DNA of 44,532 bases from sequence record OX457022. The stretch is one strand, 5' to 3'. The notes beneath the pieces were generated by a model. It worked only from the letters and a program-made list of their open reading frames with translations, did not search any database and was not told where the DNA came from. The position numbers were made by a program, and so were the translations under genes. Positions 1,448 to 43,743 of this stretch are shown in pieces (position 1 is the stretch's first letter; each line of letters begins with the position of its first letter). The DNA is from Escherichia phage vB_EcoP-CC1.

Positions 1448-2447
1448 ACTTCGTAGCCTTTATAAAGACTCCGAGGTGCTTGATGCAATCGAGCAAGCTA
1501 CCGACGAGAAAGGTAATGTTAACTATAATGAGATGGCGAAGGTTCTATCTAGCCACCCTGTGGGTAAGAAGATCACCCGTCAACTTGCTCGCTACTGGCA
1601 TGGTCAATTCAAGAAGACCAAGAAGAATGGTGATTATTACCAGACTCTTCTGCAAGAGGATAAGCGTATCAAAGAAGAGCGTAAGCTCAGGACTCCTGAC
1701 CGCTACGAGGATTTGGCTATTGTACCATTGCCTGACTCGCCTCATCGAAGTGTACTGGTAATCCCTGATACTCATGCACCTTATGAGCACCCAGATACCT
1801 TAGAGTTCCTTGCAGCAGTGGCAGCACGTTATCGACCAGACACAGTGGTACATCTTGGAGATGAGGCAGATAAACATGCCCTGTCATTCCATGATTCGGA
1901 TCCAAATTTGGACAGTGCTGGCATGGAGTTAGAGAAGGCTCGTGTCTTCATGCACAAGTTGCACAAGATGTTCCCTGTGATGCGCCTGTGTCACTCTAAC
2001 CACGGATCTATGCATTTCCGTAAAGCGAGCGCCAAGGGTATTCCTGTGCAATACCTGCGTACCTATCGTGAAGTCTTCTTCCCGAATGGAGGTGGCGACC
2101 AGTGGGACTGGCAGCATACTCATGTGCTTGAGTTGCCGAATGGCGAACAGGTGGCATTCAAGCACCAACCTGCTGGTTCTGTCCTAGCAGATGCAGCGCA
2201 TGAGCGCATGAACCTAGTGTGTGGACATTTGCATGGTAAGATGTCGGTAGAGTATGCACGTAATACACATGAACAGTATTGGGCTGTGCAGGGTGGCTGT
2301 CTGATTGATGAGTCCTCTCGTGCATTTGCCTATGGTCGTGAGTCTAAATACAAGCCAGCATTAGGTTGTGTGGTTATTCTGGAAGGTGTGCCTCATATTG
2401 TCCCGATGCAGACCAATAGTGACAATCGCTGGATTGGTAAGATTTAG
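1440..2447 (+). CDS. Calcineurin-like metallophosphoesterase with an N-terminal extension of about 100 aa
   Basis: AAGGAGG at 1427-1433 precedes the GTG at 1440. Motifs VIPDTHAPYEHPD, HLGDEADK, SNHG and GHLHG are present. Confidence 0.7.
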   Translation: MAKLRSLYKDSEVLDAIEQATDEKGNVNYNEMAKVLSSHPVGKKITRQLARYWHGQFKKTKKNGDYYQTLLQEDKRIKEERKLRTPDRYEDLAIVPLPDSPHRSVLVIPDTHAPYEHPDTLEFLAAVAARYRPDTVVHLGDEADKHALSFHDSDPNLDSAGMELEKARVFMHKLHKMFPVMRLCHSNHGSMHFRKASAKGIPVQYLRTYREVFFPNGGGDQWDWQHTHVLELPNGEQVAFKHQPAGSVLADAAHERMNLVCGHLHGKMSVEYARNTHEQYWAVQGGCLIDESSRAFAYGRESKYKPALGCVVILEGVPHIVPMQTNSDNRWIGKI

Positions 2448-2464
2448 TTGACACTATAGAACAA
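2442..2464 (+). promoter_or_regulatory. Phage RNAP promoter, AGTTG variant (ATTTAGTTGACACTATAGAACAA)
   Basis: The SP6-like core GACACTATAG is present; the predicted +1 is G at 2459. Confidence 0.75.
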
Positions 2465-2499
2465 AGGGCAGGTAATGTCTTGCCCTTGATTGTATAGTG
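2465..2499 (+). promoter_or_regulatory. 5' leader hairpin (AGGGCA...TGCCCT) plus conserved TGATTGTATAGTG
   Basis: A stem-loop follows +1 immediately. The same layout occurs at 42513-42547, with a different stem sequence. Confidence 0.55.
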
Positions 2500-2515
2500 A
2501 ATGGAGGAATTAATT

Positions 2516-3001
2516 ATGTCAGAGACTGATATTAGAAAGATTGATATTGGAGAGTACGTCGTACGCCGTGCAGCTTACCGAGATGCCAACTGGAATAAAC
2601 TGTGTGAAAGACTAAACAAGAAACCAGATGAGGTATTCAAAGTATCCAGTGCAGAACCTAATTATAACTCTATCATGTTAGAAGGTGTTGAGAAGCGCGA
2701 ATGGTATGCGCCTTACTTCCATGTTGTTGACTCATTGCAAGGTGAAGAACCTAACACGTTGGACAACAATATGGTTACTAAGCCGAAGCACTATGAGTTC
2801 TTCGAAGGTGTAGAAGCGATTACTATCATTGCCCGCAGCATGACCGAGAAGCAATTCGCTGGCTATTGCATGGGTAATGCTTTGAAGTACCGCCTACGTG
2901 CAGGTAAGAAGTTCAACACTGAAGAAGACCTGAAGAAAGCAGACTACTATAAGGAGTTATTCCAGAAGCATCGTCACGAATGTATTGATGAGGATATTTG
3001 A
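2516..3001 (+). CDS. T7 gp1.7-like protein (DUF3310; nucleotide kinase family)
   Basis: GGAGG lies 8 nt before the ATG at 2516. KPKHYEFFEGVEAITIIARSMTEKQFAGYCMGNALKYRLRAGKK...ADYYKELFQKH parallels the T7 gp1.7 C-terminus (recalled). Confidence 0.7.
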   Translation: MSETDIRKIDIGEYVVRRAAYRDANWNKLCERLNKKPDEVFKVSSAEPNYNSIMLEGVEKREWYAPYFHVVDSLQGEEPNTLDNNMVTKPKHYEFFEGVEAITIIARSMTEKQFAGYCMGNALKYRLRAGKKFNTEEDLKKADYYKELFQKHRHECIDEDI

Positions 3002-3002
3002 T

Positions 3003-3950
3003 ATGAATATCTTTGAGTTCCTAGGTCTTCCAGAAGATCACCGCAACCACCCATTCATGTTGGTGAAACATCGTGGTGAAGTCCCTGAGAAGAAATTAAC
3101 CTTTCCATGTTATGCACAGGTGAAACGAGATGGAATATTCAGTGCTGTTGTGGTGCGTAATGATGGTGCTGTTGCCATCTTTGGTCGTACTGGTAAGAAG
3201 CTCGCAAATGTTGAAGCCTTGGAAAAGACATTTAGTGTATTTCCTGTCGGGTTGTATCTTGGTGAGTTGCAATCTATGGCTGTTGATGTTTATCTTGAAG
3301 CTCTATCAGGAGTGGTAAACCCTAATCGTACAGAGCCACTTGATTTCATAGGCCAGCAGATTAAAGACAACCTGTATATCGACTTCTTCGATATGTTAAC
3401 CATTAAGGCATTCCATGATGGATTCACTGATGTTTCTTATCTCAAACGTTACGATGCTTTACATCGTCGCATCGGCACTCATCTTAGCGGGTACAACGCT
3501 ATTCTTCCTATTACTCCTTGCCATAATGAGAGAGAGGTTGAAGCGTTTGCTCAAGAGCAAATAGATGCAGGCCGAGAGGGTGCTGTCTTTAAACTTGACT
3601 GTGATTATGAAGCAGGCCATAAAGGATATCGTCAGACTAAAGAAGTCCGTAAGGTAACTTATGACCTTACTTGTATTGGCTTTGAAGAAGGCAAAGGTAA
3701 GTACAAGGGTAAGGTAGCTAACCTCATTTTCAAATGGAAAGGAGGCAAGACAATCAAAGCTATGCTAGGTAAGGGGTGGACTCATGCAGATGCAGAACAG
3801 ATGTTCCATGATATTAAACATGGCGGACGATTGAATGTCATTGGTAAAATCTTTGAAGTCAAAGGTCTTCAGGATTCAAGCAAGGGCAACATTCGTCAGC
3901 CCAAAGCGGGAGAATTAAGACATGACAAAGATGAACCAGATTTCTTTTGA
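3003..3950 (+). CDS. ATP-dependent DNA ligase
   Basis: The adenylation motif VKRDGIF (KxDG) is present. GAGGA precedes the ATG at 3003. Size and position fit a T7-group ligase. Confidence 0.85.
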   Translation: MNIFEFLGLPEDHRNHPFMLVKHRGEVPEKKLTFPCYAQVKRDGIFSAVVVRNDGAVAIFGRTGKKLANVEALEKTFSVFPVGLYLGELQSMAVDVYLEALSGVVNPNRTEPLDFIGQQIKDNLYIDFFDMLTIKAFHDGFTDVSYLKRYDALHRRIGTHLSGYNAILPITPCHNEREVEAFAQEQIDAGREGAVFKLDCDYEAGHKGYRQTKEVRKVTYDLTCIGFEEGKGKYKGKVANLIFKWKGGKTIKAMLGKGWTHADAEQMFHDIKHGGRLNVIGKIFEVKGLQDSSKGNIRQPKAGELRHDKDEPDFF

Positions 3951-4137
3951 TAGTATGAAGGCGACTCGTGCTGTTGAGGTAGCAGAAGCTATCTTTGAAA
4001 CTTTATCTTGCGGCATGGAAGTGCCATATACTTTACTGGCTGATGCAGAAGAACTTGGTCTTTCTGTAGAAGCTATCCAAGAGAAAGTTGAGGAACTCTA
4101 TGGTACAGACGAAGAAGAAACCGACGATTTCATTTGA
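3922..4137 (+). CDS. Hypothetical acidic protein (C-terminus EEETDDFI)
   Basis: The ORF has GGGAGA 8 nt upstream and overlaps the ligase end. The start is uncertain; 3955 is an alternative. Confidence 0.4.
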   Translation: MTKMNQISFDSMKATRAVEVAEAIFETLSCGMEVPYTLLADAEELGLSVEAIQEKVEELYGTDEEETDDFI

Positions 4138-7413: not shown

Positions 7414-7436
7414 ATTTACTGGACACTATAGAAGGG
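7414..7436 (+). promoter_or_regulatory. Phage RNAP promoter (ATTTACTGGACACTATAGAAGGG), capsid promoter
   Basis: It is a consensus match, with +1 G at 7431. Confidence 0.9.
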
Positions 7437-8693: not shown

Positions 8694-8730
8694 GCCCTAT
8701 CTACCTTGCGTAGGTAGGGTTCTTTTGTTT
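8694..8730 (+). terminator. Hairpin plus T-run after the capsid gene (T-phi analogue)
   Basis: CCCTA/TAGGG and CTAC/GTAG pair, followed by TTCTTTTGTTT. Confidence 0.65.
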
Positions 8731-15557: not shown

Positions 15558-15601
15558 TATACTCAAGGTTTGTCTCACATGTGAGACATGCCTTTATGAA
15601 T
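15558..15601 (+). promoter_or_regulatory. RNase III-like hairpin with a palindrome apex (TATACTCAAGGT-tTGTCTCACATGTGAGACAt-GCCTTTATGAAT)
   Basis: It is intergenic. The flanks are identical to those of the hairpin at 41961-41996 and resemble the T7 R0.3 segment CTCAAGGGT...GCCCTTTATGAT (recalled). Confidence 0.55.
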
Positions 15602-22702: not shown

Positions 22703-22985
22703 ACATGCAGCCACAGAGGATGAAGTAGGCATCCTTCATGGCGCTATTACGAAGATGTTTAATAAGAAAGCACAGGCTATACTGGACACTATAGAAGAAG
22801 ACCCTGATTCTGCTATGCACTTAGTGTCAGGTAAGGATATTGGAGCCATGTGTAAGTGGGTTTTAGATAATGGCATTACTGCAACCCCTGCTGCACAGCA
22901 GGAAGAATCTAAGTTGTCTAAGCGTCTCAAGGCTATCCGAGAGGCGTCCAGTGGTAAGATCATTCAGTTTACTAAGGAGGATTAA
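22686..22985 (+). CDS. Terminase small subunit (gp18-position)
   Basis: GGAGGA precedes the ATG at 22686, directly upstream of the large terminase. Confidence 0.55.
   Translation: MSVHNKHAATEDEVGILHGAITKMFNKKAQAILDTIEEDPDSAMHLVSGKDIGAMCKWVLDNGITATPAAQQEESKLSKRLKAIREASSGKIIQFTKED
22777..22799 (+). promoter_or_regulatory. Intragenic near-consensus phage promoter (CTATACTGGACACTATAGAAGAA)
   Basis: Positions -13 to +5 are identical to the consensus, and it lies upstream of the large terminase. Confidence 0.5.
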
Positions 22986-24880: not shown

Positions 24881-24881
24881 T

Positions 24882-24904
24882 ATTTACTGGACACTATAGG
24901 AGGA
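24882..24904 (+). promoter_or_regulatory. Phage RNAP promoter (ATTTACTGGACACTATAGGAGGA)
   Basis: It is a consensus match that begins 2 nt after the terminase stop. Confidence 0.85.
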
Positions 24905-27233: not shown

Positions 27234-27256
27234 ATTTACTGGACACTATAGAAGGA
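27234..27256 (+). promoter_or_regulatory. Phage RNAP promoter (ATTTACTGGACACTATAGAAGGA)
   Basis: It is a consensus match upstream of the second fibre gene. Confidence 0.85.
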
Positions 27257-30042: not shown

Positions 30043-30058
30043 GTCTAACATGTGAGAC
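30043..30058. repeat. Palindrome family copy, 1 mismatch (GTCTAACATGTGAGAC)
   Basis: Read directly. It is intergenic, 35 bp upstream of the -35 element of the first early promoter. Confidence 0.7.
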
Positions 30059-30092: not shown

Positions 30093-30121
30093 TTGACAAG
30101 GCCATCTCAATGTAATACTAT
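30093..30121 (+). promoter_or_regulatory. Host sigma70 early promoter (TTGACA-17 bp-TACTAT)
   Basis: It has a consensus -35 element, 17-bp spacing and a good -10 element, upstream of the first early ORFs. Confidence 0.65.
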
Positions 30122-30742: not shown

Positions 30743-30771
30743 TTGACAGCCACGGCATACAAGGTTACATT
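30743..30771 (+). promoter_or_regulatory. Host sigma70 early promoter (TTGACA-17 bp-TACATT)
   Basis: It has a consensus -35 element and 17-bp spacing, upstream of ocr. Confidence 0.65.
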
Positions 30772-30913: not shown

Positions 30914-31273
30914 ATGACTATGTCTAATATGACTTACTCTCAGGTTTACAACACCGCTCATGCTGCATTAGTTGAACGTATCTGGAATGATGCTATTGAT
31001 TGTATCGATAACGCACATGATGCAATCCATGAGGTAGCGGACAGTGCTGTACCAATCTATTATGCTGACATCTTCTCAGTGATGGCGAGTGAAGGTATTG
31101 ATCACTTCTTCGAAGACTCCGGCCTGATGCCAGATACTAAGGATGTAACGGTCGTACTACAAGCCCGTATTTATGAACAACTCACCATTGATTTATGGGA
31201 ACGTGTTCAAGATATGATTGTTGCGTACACCAATTACGCTGAGGATTCAGAAGAAGAAGAAGAGGAAGAATAA
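30914..31273 (+). CDS. ocr: Ocr (T7 gp0.3) homologue: DNA mimic, type I R-M/BREX inhibitor
   Basis: MTMSNMTY...[61 protein letters not shown] is near-identical to recalled T7 Ocr, and it has an acidic tail. Confidence 0.9.
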
Positions 31274-31275
31274 GG

Positions 31276-31389
31276 ATGGAAAAGCAATATAACTTTATCT
31301 TTTCAGACGGTGTGACCCTGAAGTGTTCCCTGCGTTTCGCACAGATTCGCGAGGAAGTGCTAGGAACTACATACAAACTATTTAGCTGA
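31276..31389 (+). CDS. Early 37-aa hypothetical protein
   Basis: The ORF starts 2 nt after the ocr stop. The sequence is MEKQYNFIFSDGVTLKCSLRFAQIREEVLGTTYKLFS. Confidence 0.4.
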   Translation: MEKQYNFIFSDGVTLKCSLRFAQIREEVLGTTYKLFS

Positions 31390-31402
31390 CACTATAAGAG
31401 AG
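31380..31402 (+). promoter_or_regulatory. Phage RNAP promoter variant (ATTTAGCTGACACTATAAGAGAG)
   Basis: It has the SP6-like TGACACTATA core, but A rather than G at the predicted +1 (31397). Confidence 0.55.
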
Positions 31403-31639: not shown

Positions 31640-31703
31640 TGAGCCTATAGCCTACTTAAGTGGGCTATGTGAACACCATTCATTAACTCAAAAGGTGACT
31701 ATT

Positions 31704-32627
31704 ATGACTACTGAAAACACCCTCCTGTCTGTTCGTGAAGCTGCAACCGCTGAGATCAAGCAACACTTAGACAATATCGGCACTTCTTACATCAAAGTTG
31801 GCGCTTGTCTTAATGAGTTACGCGGTGACTTTGAAGGTCAAAAAGACTTTTTGGCTTATGTAGAATCAGAATTTGGAATCAAGAAAGCACAATGTTACAA
31901 GCTGATGAGTGTAGCCCGTGTCTTTGAAGGCGATGATCGCTTTAAAGGCGTGGCGATGCGTGTAATGCTGGCACTTGTTCCTTTCGCTGATGAAAATATC
32001 ATCATGGAGAAAGCCGCAGAACTTGCCGCAGCGGGCAAGCTGGACACTAATGCCGTAAATGCCCTGATTGATCCTAAGAAAGAGACAAAGGCCGAGACGG
32101 TACAATCTAAGGCTGAGGCGGTAAAACCGCAGGAGAATGCGACTGAGGCCGCAGAAACTATGCAAGGACATGCGACCTTTGAGGATTTCATCTTAGAGAA
32201 GGCGAAAGAGGAATTACAAAGTGTGCCGCCAGTAAGTGAGTCGGGTAACGACGAATCCGCACCGTGGGAAGATGAAAGCAAGCCGGAAGCGCCAAAGGCC
32301 GCGCCACTGGATAACACGGCTAACACGGAGAACGCCGCTATGTCTGGCCTACTGGCACAAATTAAGGCACTGACTGAGCAATTACAGGCAGCTAACGACC
32401 GCATCGCCGCCCTAACCAGTGCACGGGAAGGTAAGAAAGCGGCTGCGCCTATGCTTCCGCAGTTTAAATCCTCTTGCTTCTACGCTCGCTTAGGCTTGAG
32501 CGCCGAGGAAGCAACGAAGAAAACAGCAGTGAATAAGGCACGCCGTGAACTGGTTAAACTAGGGTATGGTGAAGGTCATGAGGCATGGCCTTTGATCTCT
32601 GAGGCAGTAGAAGAATTAACTAAGTAA
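31704..32627 (+). CDS. Early protein with a DUF3102-like N-terminal domain
   Basis: AAGGTG precedes the ATG at 31704. IKQHLDNIGTSYIKVGACLNELRGDFEGQKDFLAYVESEFGIKKAQCYKLMSVARVF fits the remembered DUF3102 pattern. The middle is acidic and Ala-rich, and a coiled coil follows. Confidence 0.6.
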   Translation: MTTENTLLSVREAATAEIKQHLDNIGTSYIKVGACLNELRGDFEGQKDFLAYVESEFGIKKAQCYKLMSVARVFEGDDRFKGVAMRVMLALVPFADENIIMEKAAELAAAGKLDTNAVNALIDPKKETKAETVQSKAEAVKPQENATEAAETMQGHATFEDFILEKAKEELQSVPPVSESGNDESAPWEDESKPEAPKAAPLDNTANTENAAMSGLLAQIKALTEQLQAANDRIAALTSAREGKKAAAPMLPQFKSSCFYARLGLSAEEATKKTAVNKARRELVKLGYGEGHEAWPLISEAVEELTK

Positions 32628-32690: not shown

Positions 32691-35318
32691 ATGCAAGATC
32701 TACACGCTATTCAGCTTCAGCTTGAGGAAGAAATGTTTAACGGCGGTATTCGTCGCTTTGAAGCAGACCAACAACGCCAGATTGCATCAGGTAATGAATC
32801 CGATACGGCATGGAATCGTCGCCTGTTGTCGGAGCTTATCGCACCTATGGCGGAAGGTATTCAGGCTTATAAGGAAGCCTACGAAGGAAAGAAAGGACGC
32901 GCACCGCGTGCACTGGCCTTCATTAACTGCGTAGAGAACGAAGTGGCAGCATATATCACGATGAAGATCGTAATGGATATGCTTAACACAGATGTAACCT
33001 TGCAAGCCATAGCAATGAATGTAGCTGATCGCATCGAAGATCAAGTACGCTTCAGCAAGCTGGAAGGCCACGCCGCCAAATACTTTGAAAAAGTTAAGAA
33101 GTCACTCAAGGCAAGTAAGACTAAATCATATCGCCATGCGCACAACGTAGCGGTAGTGGCTGAGAAGTCAGTAGCTGACCGTGACACTGATTTCTCCCGC
33201 TGGGAGGCGTGGCCTAAAGATACCTTACTGCAAATCGGTATGACCTTGCTAGAAATACTGGAGAATAGCGTATTCTTCAATGGTCAACCTGTCTTCCTCC
33301 GCACCTTGCGCACTAATGGTGGCAAGCATGGTGTTTACTACTTACAGACCAGTGAGCACGTAGGGGAGTGGGTTACAGCATTTAAAGAACATGTAGCGCA
33401 ACTTAGTCCGGCCTATGCACCTTGCGTCATTCCTCCGCGCCCTTGGGTGTCCCCTTTTAATGGTGGGTTTCATACTGAGAAGGTGGCAAGTCGCATCCGT
33501 TTGGTAAAAGGCAACCGTGAGCACGTCCGTAAGCTGACCAAAAAGCAAATGCCAGCAGTTTATAAGGCTGTTAATGCTTTACAGGCCACTAAGTGGCAAG
33601 TTAACAAAGAAGTTTTGCAGGTAGTAGAAGACGTTATCCGTCTCGACCTTGGTTATGGTGTACCTTCCTTTAAACCACTCATCGACCGCGAGAACAAGCC
33701 GGCTAACCCAGTGCCGTTAGAATTTCAACACTTGCGAGGCCGCGAACTGAAGGAAATGTTAACGCCGGAACAATGGCAAGCCTTCATCAACTGGAAAGGT
33801 GAATGCACCAAGCTGTATACCGCTGAGACTAAGCGCGGAAGTAAGTCGGCGGCAACCGTTCGCATGGTAGGACAAGCGCGCAAATACAGCCAGTTTGATG
33901 CGATTTATTTCGTGTATGCACTGGATAGCCGCTCACGCGTTTATGCGCAATCTAGCACACTCTCACCGCAATCAAACGACCTAGGCAAGGCGTTACTGCG
34001 TTTTACCGAAGGGCAGCCGCTAAATAGCTCTGAGGCGCTTAAATGGTTTTTGGTGAACGGGGCGAATAACTGGGGTTGGGATAAGAAGACTTTCGACGTG
34101 CGCACCGCTAACGTACTGGACGGCGAGTTTCAAGATATGTGCCGCGACATTGCAGCGGATCCTCTGACCTTTACTCAATGGGTAAATGCCGATTCACCTT
34201 ATGGATTCCTTGCATGGTGCTTTGAGTATGCTCGTTATTTGGATGCACTGGATGAAGGAACACAAGATCAGTTTGTGACGCATTTACCTGTTCATCAAGA
34301 TGGTAGCTGTTCTGGCATCCAGCACTACAGTGCTATGCTACGCGACGAAGTGGGTGCGAAGGCGGTAAACCTTAAACCATCCGACTCGCCTCAAGATATT
34401 TATGGAGCGGTTGCGCAGGTTGTTATCCAGAAGAACTACGCCTACATGAATGCAGATGATACAGAAACTTTCACATCTGGAAGCGTAACACTTACAGGTG
34501 CAGAACTGCGCAGCATGGCTAACGCGTGGGATATGATTGGGATCACTCGCGGCTTAACCAAAAAGCCAGTAATGACCTTGCCATACGGCTCCACCCGCTT
34601 AACCTGCCGTGAATCGGTGATTGATTATATCGTTGATTTGGAAGAAAAAGAGGCGCAGAGAGCTGTTGCCGAAGGGCGGACGGCTAATCCTGTGCACCCT
34701 TTTGATAATGACCGTAAAGACTATCTGACACCTGGTGCAGCTTACAACTATATGACCGCTTTAATTTGGCCTTCTATCTCTGAGGTTGTTAAAGCGCCTA
34801 TAGTGGCGATGAAAATGATTCGCCAGCTTGCACGATTCGCAGCTAAAAGAAACGAAGGGTTAGAGTACACCTTACCCACTGGTTTCATCTTGCAGCAAAA
34901 GATAATGGCTACCGACATGCTACGCGTATCCACTTGCTTGATGGGTGAAATCAAGATGAGTCTACAGATTGAGACTGATGTAGTGGATGAAACGGCAATG
35001 ATGGGCGCTGCCGCTCCTAACTTTGTTCACGGTCATGATGCGAGTCACCTTATTCTGACTGTATGTGACCTAGTTGACAAAGGTATTACATCAATTGCAG
35101 TTATTCATGACTCTTTCGGAACTCATGCAGGCCGTACATCAGATCTTCGTGATAGCTTAAGGGCAGAAATGGTTAAGATGTATCAAGGGCGTAACGCCTT
35201 GCAGCAATTGCTGGATGAGCATGAAGAACGTTGGTTGGTGGACACTGGCATTCAAGTGCCGGAACAAGGGGAGTTTAACCTTGAAGAGATATTAGTTTCT
35301 GACTATTGTTTTGCATAA
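32691..35318 (+). CDS. Single-subunit DNA-directed RNA polymerase (SP6-type)
   Basis: [32 protein letters not shown]... and most of the length closely follow the recalled SP6 RNAP. The C-terminus ends ...YCFA. Confidence 0.98.
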
Positions 35319-35325: not shown

Positions 35326-35357
35326 AGGCCATTCCTTAGGGAGTGGCCTTTTCTTTT
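35326..35357 (+). terminator. Terminator after the RNAP gene (early terminator analogue)
   Basis: The AGGCCA...TGGCCT hairpin is followed by TTTTCTTTT. Confidence 0.6.
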
Positions 35358-35392
35358 ACCTATTACCTGTAACATTTAATTAACATAACCGT

Positions 35393-35408
35393 GTCTCACG
35401 CGTGAGAC
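35393..35408. repeat. Palindrome family copy (GTCTCACGCGTGAGAC)
   Basis: It is a perfect dyad located 2 bp upstream of the promoter at 35411. Confidence 0.9.
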
Positions 35409-35410
35409 TT

Positions 35411-35433
35411 ATTTACCGGACACTATAGGATAA
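35411..35433 (+). promoter_or_regulatory. Phage RNAP promoter, ACCGG class (ATTTACCGGACACTATAGGATAA)
   Basis: It matches the core consensus and is the first of a tandem pair after the RNAP gene. Confidence 0.8.
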
Positions 35434-35573
35434 CCGTCGGAGACGGAAAGAGAAGGGAAGATAAGGATATAAAGGAAGTAATAGGTATTAAAGGTTGTAT
35501 AGGTTTACCTAGGAATACTTATTACCTTCTTCCTTCCTCTTCTTACTACCTAGAGGAAGGGCAGACCTAGGTT

Positions 35574-35589
35574 GTCTCACATGTGAGAC
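35574..35589. repeat. Palindrome family copy (GTCTCACATGTGAGAC)
   Basis: It is a perfect dyad located 4 bp upstream of the promoter at 35594. Confidence 0.9.
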
Positions 35590-35593
35590 TTCG

Positions 35594-35616
35594 TATTTAC
35601 CGGACAGTATAGATAA
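35594..35616 (+). promoter_or_regulatory. Phage RNAP promoter variant (ATTTACCGGACAGTATAGATAAG)
   Basis: It matches the consensus except for a C-to-G change at -5. It is the second of the tandem pair. Confidence 0.6.
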
Positions 35617-35642
35617 GACTAACTTACTTTGGAGATTTAACC

Positions 35643-35771
35643 ATGCGTAACTTTGAGAAGATGACCCGTAAAGCTAACCGTTTTGACATGGAAGAAGGGC
35701 AGACGAGAGGCAAGAAGCTGAATAAACCTGTCCGTGACCGTGCATCTAAACGAGCAGCGTGGGAGTCCTAA
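35643..35771 (+). CDS. T7 gp1.1-like 42-aa basic protein
   Basis: GGAG precedes the ATG. MRNFEKMTRKANRF...GKKLNKPVRDRASKRAAWES compares with recalled T7 gp1.1 MRNFEKMTKRSNRN...GRKLNKTKRDRSHKRSWEGQ. It is not in the track because it is under 60 aa. Confidence 0.6.
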   Translation: MRNFEKMTRKANRFDMEEGQTRGKKLNKPVRDRASKRAAWES

Positions 35772-35774: not shown

Positions 35775-37763
35775 ATGGCTATTATTCAGAACGTACCGTG
35801 CCCTGCCTGCCAAAAGAATGGACACGATAAATCCGGCAACCATCTTATGATATTTGAGGATGGCGCTGGTTACTGTAACCGTGGTCATTTCCATGATAAT
35901 GGCAAACCTTATTACCATAAGCCAGAGGGCGGCATCGAGATAACCGAATTGCCCATTACTGGCAATATCAAATACACACCTTCTCAATTCAAAGAAATGG
36001 AGAAGGAAGGGAAGATAAGCGACCCTAAGCTACGCGCCATCGCACTTGGTGGTATGCGTATGAAAGACCGTTGGGAGGTCATGAATGAGCAAGAAAGGGC
36101 AGACCAAGAAGCAGAGTGGAAACTTGATGTTGAATGGTTCCTCACGCTTAAGCGTAAGAACCTTGTTTCCCGACACATTCGCGGCGACATTTGCGCATTG
36201 TATGATGTACGTGTCGGACACGATGAAGAGGGTAGAGTCTCGCGGCATTACTATCCACGCTTCGAGAAAGGTGAGCTAGTAGGAGCTAAGTGTCGCACAT
36301 TACCTAAAGACTTTAAGTTTGGTCATTTAGGTAAACTCTTTGGTATGCAAGATCTTTTCGGGATGAATACTTTGTCTCACGTGTTAGACAAGGGAAGACG
36401 AAAGGATTGCTTGCTTATTGTTGGTGGGGAACTGGATGCGCTAGCAGCGCAGCAGATGCTCCTTGATTCTGCCAAGGGTACTAAGTGGGAAGGTCAACCT
36501 TACCATGTATGGTCTGTTAACAAAGGGGAGTCTTGCCTTGAAGAGATTGTGCAGAACCGTGAACACATCGCCCAATTCAAGAAGATTATTTGGGGCTTCG
36601 ATGGGGATGAGGTAGGGCAGAAGCAGAACCAGCAAGCGGCTCGCCTGTTCCCTGGCAAATCTTATATCCTTGAATACCCCTCTGGTTGCAAAGATGCCAA
36701 CAAGGCATTGATGGCTGGTAAAGCCAAAGAATTTGTGGATGCTTGGTTTAATGCAAAGTCATCTGATGAAGTCTTTGGTAGCCAGATTAAATCTATCGCA
36801 TCTCAAAGGGATAAGCTCAAGGCTGCACGTCCAGAACAAGGGCTGTCATGGCCTTGGCCTAAGCTAAACAAGGTAACACTGGGTATCCGTAAGAACCAGC
36901 TTATCATTATAGGTGCAGGCTCTGGTGTTGGTAAGACAGAGTTCCTCCGTGAAGTGGTAAAGCATCTCATCGAAGAACACGGTGAATCTGTAGGTATCAT
37001 TTCTACAGAAGACCCGATGGTCAAAGTGTCCCGTGCTTTTATCGGTAAGTGGATTGATAAGCGTATTGAACTACCGCCAACCAATGACCCGAAAGAAGAT
37101 GGCTACCGTGAGGTGTTCGACTATACAGAGGAAGAGGCTAATGCTGCCATTGATTATGTAGCTGATACAGGGAAGCTGTTTGTAGCTGACCTAGAGGGTG
37201 ACTATTCGATGGAGAAGGTAGAGCAAACTTGCCTAGAGTTTGAGGCTATGGGTATTTCTAATATCATCATTGATAACTTAACGGGGATTAAATTAGATGA
37301 GCGTGCTTTTGGTGGGAAGGTTGGTGCACTTGATGAATGCGTCAAACGAATTGGTACTATCAAAGACCGACATGCGGTTACGATTTTCCTTGTCTCTCAC
37401 CTTACACGCCCTCCGGCAAACCGTACCCAACACGAAGAAGGTGGCGAAGTTATCCTTTCTGACTTCCGAGGCTCAGGCGCTATCGGATTCTGGGCATCTT
37501 ACGCCTTGGGGATTGAGCGTAATACAAGAGCTGAAACGCTTGATGAACGGACTACCACGTACATCTCATGTGTCAAAGACCGCGACCAAGGTATCTACAC
37601 TGGAACCAAGGTCATGCTTAAGGGTGACATTCAAACCGGACGTTTAATGGAACCACAAGCCCGTACTAAGTCATTTGATACAGGTGAAGCAAGGCAACAA
37701 GAAGTACCTGATTTACCGGACACTATAGAAGAGACAACCTTTGACGATGAACAGGAGTTTTGA
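35775..37763 (+). CDS. Primase-helicase (T7 gp4-like)
   Basis: A zinc ribbon (CPACQKNGH...CNRGH) and a TOPRIM region are present. The Walker A motif is GAGSGVGKT and the acidic C-terminus reads ...FDDEQEF. Confidence 0.92.
   Translation: MAIIQNVPCPACQKNGHDKSGNHLMIFEDGAGYCNRGHFHDNGKPYYHKPEGGIEITELPITGNIKYTPSQFKEMEKEGKISDPKLRAIALGGMRMKDRWEVMNEQERADQEAEWKLDVEWFLTLKRKNLVSRHIRGDICALYDVRVGHDEEGRVSRHYYPRFEKGELVGAKCRTLPKDFKFGHLGKLFGMQDLFGMNTLSHVLDKGRRKDCLLIVGGELDALAAQQMLLDSAKGTKWEGQPYHVWSVNKGESCLEEIVQNREHIAQFKKIIWGFDGDEVGQKQNQQAARLFPGKSYILEYPSGCKDANKALMAGKAKEFVDAWFNAKSSDEVFGSQIKSIASQRDKLKAARPEQGLSWPWPKLNKVTLGIRKNQLIIIGAGSGVGKTEFLREVVKHLIEEHGESVGIISTEDPMVKVSRAFIGKWIDKRIELPPTNDPKEDGYREVFDYTEEEANAAIDYVADTGKLFVADLEGDYSMEKVEQTCLEFEAMGISNIIIDNLTGIKLDERAFGGKVGALDECVKRIGTIKDRHAVTIFLVSHLTRPPANRTQHEEGGEVILSDFRGSGAIGFWASYALGIERNTRAETLDERTTTYISCVKDRDQGIYTGTKVMLKGDIQTGRLMEPQARTKSFDTGEARQQEVPDLPDTIEETTFDDEQEF
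36374..36389. repeat. Palindrome family copy, 1 mismatch, intragenic (GTCTCACGTGTTAGAC)
   Basis: Read directly inside the primase-helicase CDS, where it codes LSHVLD. Confidence 0.6.
37711..37733 (+). promoter_or_regulatory. Phage RNAP promoter, ACCGG class, inside the 3' end of primase-helicase (ATTTACCGGACACTATAGAAGAG)
   Basis: It is a full consensus match. Confidence 0.75.
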
Positions 37764-37935: not shown

Positions 37936-37963
37936 GGGCTTGTCTCACATGTGAGACAGGCTC
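37936..37963 (+). promoter_or_regulatory. Extended hairpin with a palindrome apex (GGGCTT-GTCTCACATGTGAGAC-AGGCTC)
   Basis: The core is at 37942-37957. The flanks pair with two G-U wobbles on the + strand RNA only. Confidence 0.6.
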
Positions 37964-37996: not shown

Positions 37997-38719
37997 ATGT
38001 ATAAATTAGTATTGAATGCAGGTGATTATGTTCGTAACATCAATGAAGCCTCACGTCGTTATCGTTGCCGTGGTGTGGTTAGCTATGTAAGTGAGAACAT
38101 GTACCATGTGGAGTACAGCAACGGCATTAAACAATCTTATCATAAGAAGTTAGCACATAACTACCTTGAGAAGATTGGCGAGACAAGCAATCAATGCAAG
38201 TGTGTACATGATGAGGTTTGCGATAAGTGCAAACGTCAGGCAATTAAAGCCTTTACCTTTGCGCAACGTTATGGTTCTATGTATGGTGCTGGTCACAAGA
38301 CCGTTGCAGAAGCAGCTTGGAAGACATTACAGTTTGAGCATTCAAATGGACGACGCACCACAATTAAGAAAGAGCGCCGCAATGTCATCACTGGTAAGAC
38401 TCAAAGTGAGATGATTAAGCAATGTGGCACTGCATTAGGTGTTACACAGTTCAATACACGTGCTCTAGGTAAATCTACAGGACAAGCTATGTTTAAGATT
38501 GGTGAAGCCATGATGCACCCAAATGTACCTGTGCGAATCATGGATGTTGACCATGCAATCACAGAACATGGTACAACACGGCGTGTAGTTAATAATCATT
38601 TTGCCGACACTATAGAAGATATTATCCGTAAGCAAGGATTGAAAGGTCTTCACATCTTAAATGGTGAAGAGTTGCTGTACCTTCCTATTGTTACCGAAGA
38701 AACCTACGTGAATATCTAA
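37997..38719 (+). CDS. Hypothetical 240-aa protein with a Cys cluster (CKCVHDEVCDKCKRQ)
   Basis: GGAG precedes the ATG at 37997. I do not recognise any family. Confidence 0.65.
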   Translation: MYKLVLNAGDYVRNINEASRRYRCRGVVSYVSENMYHVEYSNGIKQSYHKKLAHNYLEKIGETSNQCKCVHDEVCDKCKRQAIKAFTFAQRYGSMYGAGHKTVAEAAWKTLQFEHSNGRRTTIKKERRNVITGKTQSEMIKQCGTALGVTQFNTRALGKSTGQAMFKIGEAMMHPNVPVRIMDVDHAITEHGTTRRVVNNHFADTIEDIIRKQGLKGLHILNGEELLYLPIVTEETYVNI

Positions 38720-39147: not shown

Positions 39148-39177
39148 AAGGGTTGTCTCACGTGTGAGACAGCCTTT
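39148..39177 (+). promoter_or_regulatory. Extended hairpin with a palindrome apex (AAGGGTT-GTCTCACGTGTGAGAC-AGCCTTT)
   Basis: The core is at 39155-39170. The flanks pair with two G-U wobbles and are followed by CATCAT. Confidence 0.6.
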
Positions 39178-39201: not shown

Positions 39202-39309
39202 ATGCCACGTGATTATGATTCTGATTGGGACTACTATGACTCAATGAATCCAAAACCCGAACGTTCAGATGATTACTACGAAACAGAGGCAATGTATGAA
39301 AACTATTGA
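39202..39309 (+). CDS. 35-aa Asp/Tyr-rich peptide overlapping the DNA polymerase start
   Basis: GGAGGTG precedes the ATG. The sequence is MPRDYDSDWDYYDSMNPKPERSDDYYETEAMYENY. Confidence 0.35.
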   Translation: MPRDYDSDWDYYDSMNPKPERSDDYYETEAMYENY

Positions 39310-41842
39310 TTGGAAGAAGGAAGCAGAAGGCCGCATCCTCGTCATGGACGCAGAAGCTAAAGGTCTGCTTGATGCTATCCGCTACGGTCATCGTGAAGAT
39401 GTACACATCATTTGCTGCATGGACTTGCTCACCACTGAGGAGTTCCTCTTCTTCGACCCATATGAGATGCGTGACCCTGAAGCAAGAGAACGCCTGAAGG
39501 AGTGGGAAGGCCATCAAGATGGTGACTTGGTTGACGGTGTTAACTTCCTGAAACACTGTGAAGCTATCGTGTCACAGAACTTCCTAGGGTATGACGGCCT
39601 CCTTTTTGAGAAAGCCTTCCCTGATATCTGGAAAGGTTTTAACTATACCGAAAGGCGCGGCAAGGGCAGACTCCGTGCCGACCTGTGTCCTGTGCGAGTC
39701 ATGGACACGCTGGTGATGAGCCGCCTGTTAAACCCCGATAGACGCCTTCCTCCGCAAGCATATGCCAAAGGTATGGGTAACGTCGCCCCTCATTCAATTG
39801 AGGCGCACGGCATCCGTATAGGACGCTATAAGCCGGAGAATGAGGACTGGTCTAAACTAACTGACCACATGGTTCACCGTGTCCGCGAGGACGTGGCAAT
39901 CGGTCGTGACCTTTTCCTGTGGCTGTACAATGGAGAGTGGACGGAGCATAAACGCCGTGGCGTGAATAAACGCACTGGCCTAGGCATTGAGACAGCCTTC
40001 CACATGGAGTCTATTGTGGCGCTGGAGATGAGCCGTCAGGCAGAGCGTGGATTCCGTCTGGATATTGACAAAGCACTAGCGCGATGCGAAGAACTGGACG
40101 CTAAGATTGATGAGACAGTCGCAGCGTTCCGCCCTCACATGCCTATGCGTATCAAGTCTAAACCTTTTAAACCGGAAGAAAAGAATGAAGTATGCCAACG
40201 CGCAAATGAGTATGGAGCTAGCAACAATATACCTACTGTCCTTGACCCCTCACACTTTCTTCATGCCGAGAGACGAGGAGATCGCAAGACAGTATGGAGT
40301 GTCACTACTAAGTCTGGTGATTGGTCGGCTAGCGTCAAGAAAGACTTTCCTCACCTTAGAGGAAACCGTAATGACACGCCAAGCATCAAGTGGATTGGCG
40401 CTTACTCGCCTGTTACTTTCGAAGAGATTCCCTTGGGTAACAGGGATACAGTTAAGCAAGTGCTCTATGATTATGGATGGAAAGGTGTTGAATTTAACGA
40501 TACCGAGCAAGCGCATCTCGATGAGCATGGCGTATTACCCAAACCTTGGAGTGGAAAGATAAATGAGAAATCCCTTACTTTATGGCAAGAAAGAGCCGCA
40601 CGTGAAGGTAAAACAGTACCAGATTGGTGCTTGGGTATCGCTGCATGGTACATACTCGTATCCCGTCGTGGTCAGATCCTCAACCGTGGTGACGTTGAAG
40701 CCTTCGATCAGAAGGGGGCGTGGCCTTCGCAAGCTGGTGTACGAAAGTGTCGCGGCCTTATACCTGTAGCCTTTAACAAGGAATTAGGAATCAATGCGCA
40801 ACAATACTACGAGAGGTATGGGTATTGGCCTACGTCTGACAAGGATGACGGAGAGTGGCGTGTGCCAGCTATTGCTATTAGTATTGGCACTTCTACGTTC
40901 CGTATGCGTCATCGCAATGTGGTTAATATTCCTGCCCGTGGCTTGTATCCTTTACGTGATTTATTCATAGCAGGTAAAGGTAAGCTAATCCTTGGTTGTG
41001 ATGGTGCAGGTCTTGAACTACGTGTACTTTCTCACTTCATGAATGACCCTGAGTACCAAGATATTGTACTGCATGGCGATATACATACTCATAACCAGAT
41101 GAAGGCGGGTCTTCCTAAGCGTGATATGGCGAAGACATTTATATATGCCTTCCTTTACGGCTCTGGTATAGCTAACCTTGCAGCAGTGTGCGGTGTTACT
41201 GAGGAAGAAATGAAGGAAGTTGTGGCAAGATTCGAGATTGAATTACCATCCCTTGCACGTCTTCGTGAGAATGTTATCGCACAAGGCAACAAGTTTGGAT
41301 ACTTACAAGCACCTGACGGGCATTGGGGTCGCATCCGTATGTCTGGTGGAGAACTTAAAGAGCACACTATGCTTAATGTATTACTCCAAATGACTGGCTC
41401 TTTGTGTATGAAATACGCATTGGTCAAAGCGTTTGCAGTGATGCGCAAGGAAGGTGTGGCCTTAGATAGTATGGGACACCCTTGTGGTGTAGCTAACGTG
41501 CACGATGAAATCCAGATGGAAGTACCTGAAGAAGAGGTATTGTATCTTAACTACGACCTACCTTTCACCTTAGAGGGGTTTGAAACAGAGAAGGCTGCTG
41601 TGAAAGCAGTATTCGATGCAGAGGAGAAACGTGTTCATGTGGATTCTGAAGGACGTATGTGGTCTGCTGCAAATCTCATTAGTGTTGATGCTGCTGCTGG
41701 TGTACTTCATTGCCAGCGTCGTTATCACCGCGCAGGGCATATCATTGCCGACGCCATGACTTGGGCTGGTCAGTATCTGAAGATGCGTTGCCCGATGGCA
41801 GGCGAGTATAAGATTGGCGCAAGCTGGAAGGAAACGCACTAG
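39296..41842 (+). CDS. DNA polymerase (family A, T7 gp5-like) with a 3'-5' exonuclease domain
   Basis: The start MKTIDWKK has GAGG upstream. The exonuclease motif is LVMDAEAKGL. Polymerase motifs are LGCDGAGLELRV, RDMAKTFIYAFLYGSG and NVHDEIQMEV. Confidence 0.95.
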   Translation: MKTIDWKKEAEGRILVMDAEAKGLLDAIRYGHREDVHIICCMDLLTTEEFLFFDPYEMRDPEARERLKEWEGHQDGDLVDGVNFLKHCEAIVSQNFLGYDGLLFEKAFPDIWKGFNYTERRGKGRLRADLCPVRVMDTLVMSRLLNPDRRLPPQAYAKGMGNVAPHSIEAHGIRIGRYKPENEDWSKLTDHMVHRVREDVAIGRDLFLWLYNGEWTEHKRRGVNKRTGLGIETAFHMESIVALEMSRQAERGFRLDIDKALARCEELDAKIDETVAAFRPHMPMRIKSKPFKPEEKNEVCQRANEYGASNNIPTVLDPSHFLHAERRGDRKTVWSVTTKSGDWSASVKKDFPHLRGNRNDTPSIKWIGAYSPVTFEEIPLGNRDTVKQVLYDYGWKGVEFNDTEQAHLDEHGVLPKPWSGKINEKSLTLWQERAAREGKTVPDWCLGIAAWYILVSRRGQILNRGDVEAFDQKGAWPSQAGVRKCRGLIPVAFNKELGINAQQYYERYGYWPTSDKDDGEWRVPAIAISIGTSTFRMRHRNVVNIPARGLYPLRDLFIAGKGKLILGCDGAGLELRVLSHFMNDPEYQDIVLHGDIHTHNQMKAGLPKRDMAKTFIYAFLYGSGIANLAAVCGVTEEEMKEVVARFEIELPSLARLRENVIAQGNKFGYLQAPDGHWGRIRMSGGELKEHTMLNVLLQMTGSLCMKYALVKAFAVMRKEGVALDSMGHPCGVANVHDEIQMEVPEEEVLYLNYDLPFTLEGFETEKAAVKAVFDAEEKRVHVDSEGRMWSAANLISVDAAAGVLHCQRRYHRAGHIIADAMTWAGQYLKMRCPMAGEYKIGASWKETH

Positions 41843-41996: not shown

Positions 41997-42026
41997 AACT
42001 TACTCCTACTTATTTTGTCTAACATG

Positions 42027-42049
42027 ATTTACTGGACACTATAGAAGGA
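42027..42049 (+). promoter_or_regulatory. Phage RNAP promoter (ATTTACTGGACACTATAGAAGGA)
   Basis: It is a consensus match, directly preceded by the half palindrome GTCTAACATG (42017-42026). Confidence 0.85.
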
Positions 42050-42113: not shown

Positions 42114-42491
42114 ATGTCTATGGTAACTACTCTGGTATTCGTAGCTCAATACTTTCGTGGCCTGGCTAATAAGTTTAAACAGAAAGCAATCTTTGCAATT
42201 CAAGAACGTATTAATAAAATTGAAGAAGAACAAGTAGATGTAGAGGAACATCGTAGTTCTCAGATGATTGACCTGCATAATCGTCTGTACAAAGATCGTG
42301 ATGAGATGCGTCACCGTCATGCGAAGGAAGTTGAAGACATGCTTAACCGCCATGCGGAAGAACAAGCTAAGTTGGAAACCACTTTCCATGAGGATAAACG
42401 TAGCATCGCTCTAGCACATCAAGCTGCATCGGATAGCCTGAAGAAAGAGATTGTTATGCTGGAGATTGAGTTAGACAATCTTACCAAATAA
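42114..42491 (+). CDS. Hypothetical 125-aa coiled-coil protein
   Basis: TAGGAG precedes the ATG. A hydrophobic N-terminus is followed by charged heptad-like sequence. Confidence 0.6.
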   Translation: MSMVTTLVFVAQYFRGLANKFKQKAIFAIQERINKIEEEQVDVEEHRSSQMIDLHNRLYKDRDEMRHRHAKEVEDMLNRHAEEQAKLETTFHEDKRSIALAHQAASDSLKKEIVMLEIELDNLTK

Positions 42492-42512
42492 TTACTGGAC
42501 ACTATAGAACAA
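42490..42512 (+). promoter_or_regulatory. Phage RNAP promoter (AATTACTGGACACTATAGAACAA)
   Basis: It matches the core consensus and overlaps the stop of the preceding gene. Confidence 0.75.
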
Positions 42513-42547: not shown

Positions 42548-42557
42548 TTGAACCTTA

Positions 42558-42597: not shown

Positions 42598-42653
42598 AGT
42601 GAGTACATGCTTGTGCTCAGTACAAAGCTAACTGACAATAGGAGACTAAATAA

Positions 42654-43460
42654 ATGGCACGTGGTGATTTTGATTTTGGTGCTCAAGTTACTAAAGCTGA
42701 AGGTAAAGTATTTAAGAACCCAGAAGTAGGTGATCATGAAGCAGTTATCTCTGGCATCATTCATGTTGGTTCCTTCCAAGACATCTTTAAGAAAGGTAAT
42801 ACCACTGAAGTTAAGAAGCCAGCAAACTTTGTTCTGGTTAAGATTATCCTGATGGGTGACGATGACAAGAACGAAGATGATTCTCGCATGGAACAATGGA
42901 TGGCTGTGCCTCTGAAGTCTGGTGATAAGGCAACACTGACTAAGTTCCTGAATGCAGTTGACCCTAAAGAATTGCTTGGTGGCTTCGATGACTTCATTGG
43001 TGAATGCCTGACTGCAACCATGGTTGGCTCTGGTGATAAGAATGACGATGGCTCATTCAAGTATGTTAACTGGAAGGGCTTTGGTGGTATGCCGGAAAAG
43101 CTGAAGAAACTTGTAATTGCTCAGGTTGAAGAAGAAGGTCTGTCTATGACAGGTCACATTACCTTTGACAAGCTGACCAAAGAAATCCTTGATGATATTC
43201 CTGCTAACTTGGTACGCCAATACTTCCTGAATGAAACACCTCGTGGTAAGAACCTGTCTGTTGCTGGTTCTCACGTAGAAGAAATCATTAAAGCTGCTCG
43301 TGAAGAAGACCCAGAATGGAAGAAGGCTAAGAAGAAAGATGATGAGGATGCTACTCCAGCTAATCGTAAGTCTCTGGATACTGGCGAGTCTGTTCCGCAG
43401 GAAGTGCCTGAAGCAGAAGACGCACCTGCACCGGAAATGGATGAAGACGCGGAATACTAA
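42654..43460 (+). CDS. Putative ssDNA-binding protein (gp2.5-like architecture)
   Basis: The SD is strong. The 268-aa protein has a long acidic C-terminal tail ending ...EMDEDAEY. The call rests on architecture and position, not on sequence identity. Confidence 0.45.
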   Translation: MARGDFDFGAQVTKAEGKVFKNPEVGDHEAVISGIIHVGSFQDIFKKGNTTEVKKPANFVLVKIILMGDDDKNEDDSRMEQWMAVPLKSGDKATLTKFLNAVDPKELLGGFDDFIGECLTATMVGSGDKNDDGSFKYVNWKGFGGMPEKLKKLVIAQVEEEGLSMTGHITFDKLTKEILDDIPANLVRQYFLNETPRGKNLSVAGSHVEEIIKAAREEDPEWKKAKKKDDEDATPANRKSLDTGESVPQEVPEAEDAPAPEMDEDAEY

Positions 43461-43469
43461 GGAGGGATG

Positions 43470-43688
43470 ATGAAGGTACAAATCGTAACCCTGCACTGCA
43501 AGAAGGGCATTACAACCCTTGGCGGAAACACTTTTCACTCCTTCTCTGAAGGGGAGACATATTCTGACCTGCACTACATCTGGCGCGATGGGCAGCACGT
43601 GGTGAACTACAGCGACCCCGCTACAGGGAAACGCCACGGCGTATCTCTTCCGGCGCACGACATTGCTCAGGTGAACACAGTTTTATAA
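43470..43688 (+). CDS. Hypothetical 72-aa protein
   Basis: AAGGAGGG lies upstream. The ATG at 43467 or at 43470 could be the start. Confidence 0.5.
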   Translation: MKVQIVTLHCKKGITTLGGNTFHSFSEGETYSDLHYIWRDGQHVVNYSDPATGKRHGVSLPAHDIAQVNTVL

Positions 43689-43689
43689 A

Positions 43690-43705
43690 GTCTCACATGT
43701 GAGAC
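43690..43705. repeat. Palindrome family copy (GTCTCACATGTGAGAC)
   Basis: It is a perfect dyad located 2 nt after the stop codon and 15 bp upstream of the promoter at 43721. Confidence 0.9.
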
Positions 43706-43720
43706 AAATCGGTGTCCAGT

Positions 43721-43743
43721 ATTTACTGGACACTATAGAAGAG
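43721..43743 (+). promoter_or_regulatory. Phage RNAP promoter (ATTTACTGGACACTATAGAAGAG)
   Basis: It is a consensus match. Positions -14 to -5 are mirrored upstream (GTGTCCAGTA at 43712-43721). Confidence 0.85.

Follow-up and report, generated by a model that had tools for sequence, protein, structure and literature searches.

In phage T7, class II and class III promoters are reportedly distinguished, together with phiOL and the origin promoters phi1.1A and phi1.1B, and the switch from class II to class III is driven by the T7 lysozyme gp3.5. The promoter sets of K1-5, K1E and SP6 are said to have been described as well. Here we analysed the promoters of the phage-encoded RNA polymerase (RNAP) in the DNA of Escherichia phage vB_EcoP-CC1 (record OX457022; the whole stretch of 44,532 nucleotides is called the window below), which is the genome of a K1-5/SP6-like coliphage of the genus Vectrevirus, subfamily Molineuxvirinae. 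Through computational mining, the K1E and SP6 promoters were placed in separate clusters (PMC11880802), and a list of 14 candidate promoters was given for a polymerase, the best of them having exactly the sequence of window positions 24881-24904 (PMC13029058). The promoter family, with its K1E/K1-5 and SP6 flavours and several variants per genome, is already known from these two studies.

Thirteen sites of this family were identified in the window. We consider it likely that they are the cognate promoters of a single T7-family RNAP and form an ancestral set, composed of a consensus group and a weaker non-consensus group. This arrangement is long known from T7 and its relatives and is not a new regulatory system; nothing in it is categorically new. 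The gain in biology is small: in a vectrevirus deposited not long ago, the promoters are laid out as in K1-5 and SP6 and obey the T7 logic.

Promoter motif and sites

The promoter motif spans 23 bp, from -17 to +6 in SP6 numbering, around a conserved CACTATAG core, and its many copies at the 13 sites all point in the direction of transcription. The core GACACTATAG was found in 12 copies, all on the + strand, against 0.17 expected. When one mismatch was allowed in the core, 31388 (ending in TATAA, with A at +1) and 35603 (GACAGTATAG) were gained, each with the ATTTA upstream element. Four other one-mismatch matches, two on the + strand (16324 and 16591) and two on the - strand (34798 and 39564), lacked the ATTTA element and were rejected as chance. 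A first-pass annotation, made from the sequence alone, had stated that all promoters share GACACTATAG; this is not the case, since 35595 carries G at -5 and 31380 carries A at +1.

We built a position weight matrix (PWM) from the 13 sites and scanned both strands with it. The 13 sites scored 28-39 bits, all on the + strand, one further copy at 14392 scored 14.8 bits, and the rest of both strands gave 8 bits or less. The information content of the motif is lowest at -12, -11 and -10. The triplet at these positions is CTG in seven sites, CCG in three, and GTT, GCT and GCC in one each; position -11 is a pyrimidine in 13/13 sites, and -4 to -1 are invariant.

The seven CTG sites, which the first-pass annotation had listed as ACTGG sites with the same start positions, have the group consensus ATTTACTGGACACTATAGAAG. 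The consensus is matched from -17 to +4 at 42027-42049 (ATTTACTGGACACTATAGAAGGA, past the DNA polymerase gene), 43721-43743 (ATTTACTGGACACTATAGAAGAG), 7414-7436 (ATTTACTGGACACTATAGAAGGG, 5' of the major capsid gene) and 27234-27256 (again ATTTACTGGACACTATAGAAGGA, 5' of the tailspike gene at 27334-28857). Site 24882-24904 (ATTTACTGGACACTATAGGAGGA) is off only at +2 and, with the T preceding it, is the published best promoter '2049-6' (PMC13029058). The full ATTTA is absent from 22777-22799 (CTATACTGGACACTATAGAAGAA; CTATA), located in the small-terminase gene (22686-22985), and from 42490-42512 (AATTACTGGACACTATAGAACAA; AATTA), which overlaps the TAA stop of its upstream gene.

Six sites are off-consensus at -12 to -10, and two of the six also at -5 or +1. 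Three of them carry CCG: 35411-35433 (ATTTACCGGACACTATAGGATAA) and 35595-35617 (ATTTACCGGACAGTATAGATAAG, with G at -5) are a tandem pair past the RNAP terminator, the second member standing just 5' of a gene 1.1 homolog, and 37711-37733 (ATTTACCGGACACTATAGAAGAG) is inside the 3' end of the primase/helicase gene. The ACCGG starts given earlier were right for 35411 and 37711, and 35594 has to be corrected to 35595. Site 2442-2464 (ATTTAGTTGACACTATAGAACAA; GTT within AGTTG) lies 5' of the nucleotide kinase and ligase genes and overlaps the stop of the phosphoesterase gene (1416-2447). Site 31380-31402 (ATTTAGCTGACACTATAAGAGAG; GCT, A at +1) is in the early region, 5' of the gene 5/6 homologs and the RNAP gene, and site 38598-38620 (ATTTTGCCGACACTATAGAAGAT; T at -13, GCC) is inside a 240-aa gene (37997-38719). 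These three had been reported as AGTTG at 2442, AGCTG with A at +1 at 31380, and an odd site ATTTTGCCG at 38598 within the 240-aa gene, together with an AGGTG copy at 14393, and all of them were found again.

The division into three discrete classes, which the first-pass annotation had drawn from these bases, did not hold. Its third class joins three differing triplets (GTT, GCT and GGT), one of which is a look-alike in a coding sequence, and class identity is not stable: among relatives the same site switches between CTG and CCG, from CCG to CCT, CCA or CTG, and from GCT to TCT or GTT. The promoter data consist of one consensus group and heterogeneous, slowly drifting variants, and the third class is an artificial grouping. 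It is hardly credible that the classes are discrete and each recognised in its own way, say with the help of an accessory factor or by an RNAP that is modified to switch between them during infection. The CCG sites do cluster spatially and palindromes adjoin three promoters, but there is one RNAP gene only, class membership is unstable among close relatives, and the palindromes, which behave as RNA hairpins, are also present at places without promoters. An accessory-factor switch in particular was rejected because no gp3.5, gp2 or gp0.7 homologs were found.

Conservation of the promoter set

Near relatives of the phage include Raoultella phage P3a, R4596, LL11, K1-5, K1E and ACG-C91, and SP6 is a more distant reference. 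All 13 sites have orthologs at corresponding positions, nearly always of the same variant, in the alignable regions of vectrevirus genomes and of metagenomic contigs. K1-5 has orthologs of 13/13 sites, 11 of them with the same triplet at -12 to -10; the exceptions are the ortholog of 42490, with CTA instead of CTG, and that of 37711, with the core GATACT. In SP6, 11 of the 13 sites are base-aligned, 38598 has an equivalent about 4 codons away in the protein alignment, and 22777 is absent. The 23-bp architecture and the number and positions of the promoters are like those of K1-5, K1E and SP6.

The phage differs from SP6 in its triplet, using CTG where SP6 uses GGT, and in having the small-terminase promoter 22777. 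The window CTG corresponds to the SP6 consensus GGT at five orthologous sites and to GGG at two more. The SP6 orthologs of the non-consensus sites mostly deviate too (AAGGG, ACGTG with TATTG, AAGTG, and ATGTG with A at +1), the exception being the 37711 ortholog, which carries the SP6 consensus AGGTG. Details beyond the triplet are also kept across the genus split, such as AATTA and GAACAA at 42490 and GAAGGG at 7414, and the orthologs of 31380 have TATAA in all vectreviruses and SP6-type genomes. As judged from these alignments, the promoter set was probably present already in the ancestor shared by K1-5-like and SP6-like phages and was passed on from it.

Identity to the window, taken over 132 site-haplotypes, was 91% in the flanks, 98% at -17 to -13, 96% at -12 to -10, 99.9% at -9 to +1 and 92% at +2 to +6. 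Triplet changes were commonest at the non-consensus sites, where GCC also went to GCA or GTC besides the changes of GCT and CCG given above, and the CTG sites 42490 and 24882 are also variable among relatives. In every vectrevirus examined, -12 to -10 are unchanged at 43721, 7414 and 22777. One genome has TTG at the 42027 ortholog, and in one metagenomic contig (L013) a GGT site takes the place of 27234.

Stop codons overlap three of the promoters. In 42490, A-17 and A-16 are within the TAA stop (42489-42491) of the upstream gene, and SP6 is arranged alike; in 2442, T-14, A-13 and G-12 form the TAG stop of the phosphoesterase gene; in 31380, T-10, G-9 and A-8 form the TGA stop of the open reading frame (ORF) 31276-31389. 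Part of the promoter deviation, namely A-16 of 42490, G-12 of 2442 and T-10 of 31380, is explained in this way, because the overlapping stop codons impose these bases.

RNA polymerase and specificity loop

The window contains one gene for a T7-family single-subunit RNAP of 875 aa (32691-35318, + strand; Pfam RNA_pol, 2e-89, plus RPOL_N; T7 RNAP structures with E about 1e-112). The protein shows 97.5% identity to the K1-5 RNAP and 85.6% to that of SP6. A single polymerase serving the variants, as proposed in the first-pass annotation, agrees with this one gene, and its proposal that the variable region is read by the specificity loop is borne out insofar as the variable bases occupy the promoter positions contacted by the specificity loop in T7.

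Through alignment with T7, the codons of specificity-loop residues 734-771 were located at 34890-35003 on the + strand. In this phage and in all K1-5-type RNAPs, residues R745, S747, K755 and S757 stand at the places of T7 R746, N748, R756 and Q758; SP6-type RNAPs have R, R, K and S there. Of the four loop positions that contact bases, only the N748 equivalent (S747, codon 34929-34931) distinguishes the K1-5-type from the SP6-type RNAPs. This distinction of Ser in the K1-5 group and Arg in the SP6 type, revealed by the loop alignment with SP6 and K1-5 that had been suggested as a check, holds across all 17 SP6-family RNAPs examined. It coincides with a difference at -11 of the promoters, G in 12/12 SP6 promoters versus a pyrimidine in 13/13 here.

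In T7 and T3 RNAP, N748 reportedly reads -10/-11. By homology with T7, the triplet would be read by the specificity loop, and Ser versus Arg at the N748 equivalent would match the pyrimidine versus G at -11. A PDB search found no solved structure of an SP6-family RNAP-promoter complex. The K1E and SP6 RNAPs were reported in a 2025 study as separate residue-base clusters which break the T7-derived recognition rules (PMC11880802).

Promoter arrangement and comparison with T7

From the left end of the genome, the promoters follow in the order 31380, 35411, 35595, 37711 and 38598, all non-consensus, then 42027, 42490 and 43721 (CTG), 2442 (GTT), and 7414, 22777, 24882 and 27234 (CTG). Given six non-consensus sites among 13, the hypergeometric probability that the first five are all non-consensus is 8/1716, about 0.005, in a test that was post hoc. 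Of these leftmost five, the first lies 5' of the RNAP gene, and the next two stand in tandem before the gene 1.1 homolog; the fourth falls in the end of the primase/helicase gene, and the fifth in the gene that follows. We infer that the non-consensus group, clustered in the early-entering and replication end of the genome, is probably weaker, like the T7 class II promoters and phiOL, and would act at another time than the CTG sites. The seven CTG sites, probably strong promoters, would drive the late/structural genes as well as the DNA-metabolism genes on the right-hand side. The idea of graded strength or temporal control is the textbook T7 model, and it fits both the anatomy of the genome and the conservation pattern.

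For the comparison, 17 annotated T7 promoters were taken from NC_001604. The five class III promoters and phiOR had 0 mismatches to the T7 consensus; class II promoters and phiOL had 2-7. Like T7, the phage has non-consensus promoters near the RNAP and replication genes, late promoters identical to the consensus, intragenic promoters, and an A-initiating promoter in the leftmost region (phiOL in T7, 31380 here). Two more likenesses are the change of C-5 to G in T7 phi1.3 and in 35595, and TG at -13/-12 in T7 phi3.8 and in 38598. Unlike T7, which varies mostly -2, +2 to +6 and -17 to -13 and keeps CGA at -12 to -10 in 15/17 promoters, this phage varies -12 to -10 and keeps -4 to -1 fixed.

The unusual substitutions thus recur at non-consensus promoters of both phages, at T7 positions 405, 6409 and 11180 and at window positions 31380, 35595 and 38598. 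The recurrence may reflect either convergence towards identical weakening changes or chance.

The surroundings of the tandem pair also resemble T7, in which the RNAP gene is followed by a terminator, two tandem promoters (phi1.1A and phi1.1B) and gene 1.1. Here, a strong terminator hairpin with a T-run (35326-35349, + strand) comes after the stop of the RNAP gene at 35318 and 5' of the tandem promoters, which are 184 nt apart, and a 42-aa homolog of T7 gene 1.1 follows at 35643-35771 on the + strand (Pfam Phage_1_1, 9.5e-16; tblastn, 1.7e-9). Because the gene 1.1 homolog follows the pair, 35411 and 35595 are the positional counterparts of phi1.1A and phi1.1B, which in T7 are class II promoters at the primary replication origin (NC_001604 annotation).

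The region 35326-35642, between the RNAP gene and the gene 1.1 homolog, is origin-like and contains the terminator and the two tandem promoters, each with a preceding palindrome. A purine-rich and then pyrimidine-rich tract lies between 35411 and 35595, with an imperfect inverted repeat at 35462-35478 and 35529-35545. A terminator-like hairpin also follows the capsid gene (8694-8720, + strand), at the place where T7 has Tphi.

Intragenic copies

Three sites had been given as intragenic in the first-pass annotation, 22777, 14393 and 38598, all rightly; 37711 was missed there, although it lies within the last 53 nt of the primase/helicase gene. The intragenic cores of 37711, 38598, 22777 and 14392 share one reading frame, GAC ACT ATA GAA/GGA, encoding D-T-I-E/G, and one of the two other frames would put a TAG stop in the core. 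The encoded peptides are LPDTIEE at 37711, FADTIED at 38598, ILDTIEE at 22777 and LGDTIG at 14392.

Sites 37711 and 38598 are kept in all vectreviruses, and the former aligns base for base with a promoter of SP6. The small-terminase gene (Pfam DNA_Packaging_2) contains site 22777, 191 nt 5' of the start of the large-terminase gene. This site was found in every vectrevirus examined, and SP6-type genomes are without promoter there, with the peptide ILAAVEE. Because of this distribution, the genome comparison identifies 22777 as a vectrevirus-specific gain of an internal promoter.

The SP6-type look-alike CATTAGGTGACACTATAGGAGTA (14392-14414, + strand) is inside a 980-aa internal-virion/lysozyme-domain gene of SP6 type (gp36-like), in which it reads TTA GGT GAC ACT ATA GGA. 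This copy, which the earlier remark had put closer to the SP6 consensus than to the phage's own, has G at -11, unlike the 13 own sites, and scores far below them in the PWM scan. SP6, BP12B and UAB_Phi78 carry TAGGTGACACTATAGG at the same codons. The phage is unlike K1-5, K1E and ACG-C91 in having an SP6-type copy in this gene; in K1-5 and ACG-C91 an unrelated peptide occupies the position, and K1E is unaligned there at the nucleotide level.

The 16-nt identity between the window and SP6 at 14392 ranks only 11th in the gene, with ten longer identity runs, and by this measure the copy is not an exceptional conserved run. However, GGT GAC ACT ATA ties for the longest invariant-codon run when six lineages are compared, the background probability of an invariant codon being 0.24. 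In LL11, two synonymous changes interrupt the core codons. The copy may be a relic or a weak internal promoter. In our reading of the alignments, it would be an internal promoter, or a look-alike of one, belonging to SP6-type phages; it would have arrived with an SP6-type virion-gene module and act here weakly at most.

In a related metagenomic contig, IMGVR_UViG_3300045988_000861, a third promoter flavour was observed at positions 10857, 13236 and 2471: ATTTATGTTGCACTATAGAAGGA, with T at -9 and G at -8. The gp36 site of this contig is TTAGGTAGCACTATAGG (Asp to Ser), gaining the G at -8 of its lineage.

Strength and origin of the promoter variants

In two genomes the promoter and polymerase types are mixed. 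Vectrevirus NIC06P3 (OZ035778) and contig L013 (IMGVR_UViG_3300029310_000051) have the promoter ATTTAGGTGACACTATAGAAGAG in front of the tailspike module, at 4575 and 2709, respectively, and so combine an S747 polymerase with a ATTTAGGTGACACTATAG promoter 5' of the tailspike gene. Their tailspike modules resemble those of Klebsiella SP6-like phages. The combination suggests that promoters move along with their modules and that polymerases of another specificity type tolerate them.

A history of modules could in principle account for all the variants, if each flavour had been recombined in from a lineage whose RNAP preferred it and had not been tuned in place. Such an origin is true of the 14392 copy, which sits in an SP6-type gene with TAGGTGACACTATAGG at the same SP6 codons, and of the AGGTG tailspike promoters in NIC06P3 and L013. 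As a general account it is very improbable, for no lineage whose consensus is CCG, GTT, GCT or GCC turned up among about 35 related loci, and the same non-consensus variants occur in all vectreviruses despite their mosaic structure. Derivation of the CCG group from a CCG-consensus lineage was considered separately and dropped, as no such lineage was among these loci.

Several points weigh against an ancestral set with a strong consensus group and a weaker non-consensus group. In vitro, the K1-5-type RNAP 'No. 2049' transcribes from the SP6 promoter no worse than from its own consensus, reaching 3.5% of the T7 signal versus 2%, and its output shifts about five-fold with changes at +2/+5 (PMC13029058). 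Because GGT is little penalised and the +2/+5 effects are about five-fold, the triplet may contribute little to strength, and its role as the main strength dial is weakened. Genomes with an S747 RNAP, NIC06P3 and contig L013, carry the SP6-type AGGTG promoter before the tailspike gene, as mentioned above. The early/late split of the promoters is not clean: the consensus sites 42027, 42490 and 43721 precede DNA-metabolism genes, and the non-consensus site 2442 lies to their right. A homolog of the T7 gp3.5 lysozyme was not found by tblastn on the window, the best match being spurious (E=0.011, 26 aa, - strand). No transcription start site or RNA-seq study of an SP6-like phage was found in the literature search. 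Homologs of T7 gp2 and gp0.7 were likewise not detectable by tblastn in the window, so that the class-switch mechanism of T7 is not available here; the endolysin is annotated as M15 peptidase in relatives.

Neutral variation at -12 to -10 would be another explanation, with a loose reading by the RNAP, a drift limited only by stop codons and coding, and strength set by the initially transcribed sequence. The in vitro data on 'No. 2049', which point to a weak triplet effect (PMC13029058), speak for it, as do the AGGTG promoters in S747-RNAP genomes, the stop codons built by G-12 (2442), T-10 (31380) and A-16 (42490), and the interconversion of triplets among relatives. However, triplet divergence is about half that of the flanks (4% vs 9%), 43721, 7414 and 22777 never vary at these positions in the vectreviruses examined, and no purine occurs at -11 in 13 sites. 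The change from GGT to CTG also took place in concert at five orthologous sites between the genera, together with the R-to-S change in the loop. On this evidence we regard neutrality as unlikely, and cognate promoters in a consensus group and a weaker group as the better account.

A more specific proposal, which we put forward tentatively and hold to be rather doubtful, is that the SP6/K1-5 lineage tunes its promoters mainly via the specificity-loop contact at -12 to -10 and not, like T7, via the melting and initiation region, that the Ser-747 RNAP reads the triplet loosely and tolerates GGT, and that the variants are conserved strength settings. If true, the tolerance of GGT would allow virion and tailspike modules to pass between genera and bring their promoters along, of which NIC06P3, L013 and the 14392 copy would be instances. 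Because a K1-5-type RNAP uses the SP6 promoter, and NIC06P3 and L013 mix the two types, this polymerase might also use 14392. Tolerance of SP6-type promoters, if confirmed, bears on claims of orthogonality between the SP6 and K1E polymerases. The practical gains are modest: the natural series CTG, CCG, GTT, GCT, GCC and GGT, with the Ser/Arg loop difference, offers a panel for engineering expression with K1E/K1-5-type RNAPs.

Palindrome family

A 16-nt palindrome, GTCTCACNNGTGAGAC, occurs in 8 copies against 0.15 expected, at 15572-15587, 30043-30058, 35393-35408, 35574-35589, 36374-36389, 37942-37957, 39155-39170 and 43690-43705. Copies are found at orthologous places in relatives. The SP6 counterpart is GTC(C/T)AACNNGTTGGAC, with compensatory changes in both arms, and single SP6-type copies exist in a few vectreviruses.

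The copies at 15572, 37942 and 39155 form the tips of hairpins that are about 23 bp long and interrupted by internal loops (z = -2.9 to -7.1), and a hairpin alignment of 13 copies revealed compensatory changes in 9/23 pairs. Three other copies are 2-15 nt 5' of the promoters 35411, 35595 and 43721. The hairpins resemble the RNase III processing sites of T7 and are likely RNase III-type processing or stabilising hairpins. An Rfam scan of the window gave no match, and a literature search for the 16-mers found no paper containing them.

Genome organization and record

The gene order opens with early genes, including ocr (30914-31273), followed by the RNAP gene, the primase/helicase gene (35775-37763) and the DNA polymerase gene (about 39295-41841). 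Exonuclease, endonuclease VII, kinase and ligase genes come downstream, over the window boundary, and after the ligase gene are the portal, capsid, tail and internal virion genes, terminase, lysis genes and tailspike.

Positions 1-127 of the window are identical to 44406-44532, and record OX638290, Escherichia phage vB_EcoP-CC2, has the same kind of 127-nt overlap in another rotation. The overlap looks like an assembler k-mer overlap rather than a terminal repeat, and the unique genome length is about 44,405 bp. The window shows 100% identity with OX638290 over 25 kb and is a circular permutation relative to it. OX638290 starts at window position 32398, that is, inside a gene 6/7-like ORF (31695-32627, 310 aa). 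Because the record was linearised within it, this ORF is unannotated there, and a minus-strand coding sequence at record positions 43902-44411, probably spurious, was called instead.

The best two sigma-70-like matches, at 30093-30121 and 30743-30771 (TTGACA, 17 nt, TACTAT or TACATT; 10/12), are both in the early region 5' of ocr and are probable early promoters for the host RNAP. One copy of the 16-nt palindrome lies 35 nt 5' of the first of these matches. Record OX638290 is without regulatory annotation, and the 13 promoter sites could be added to it.

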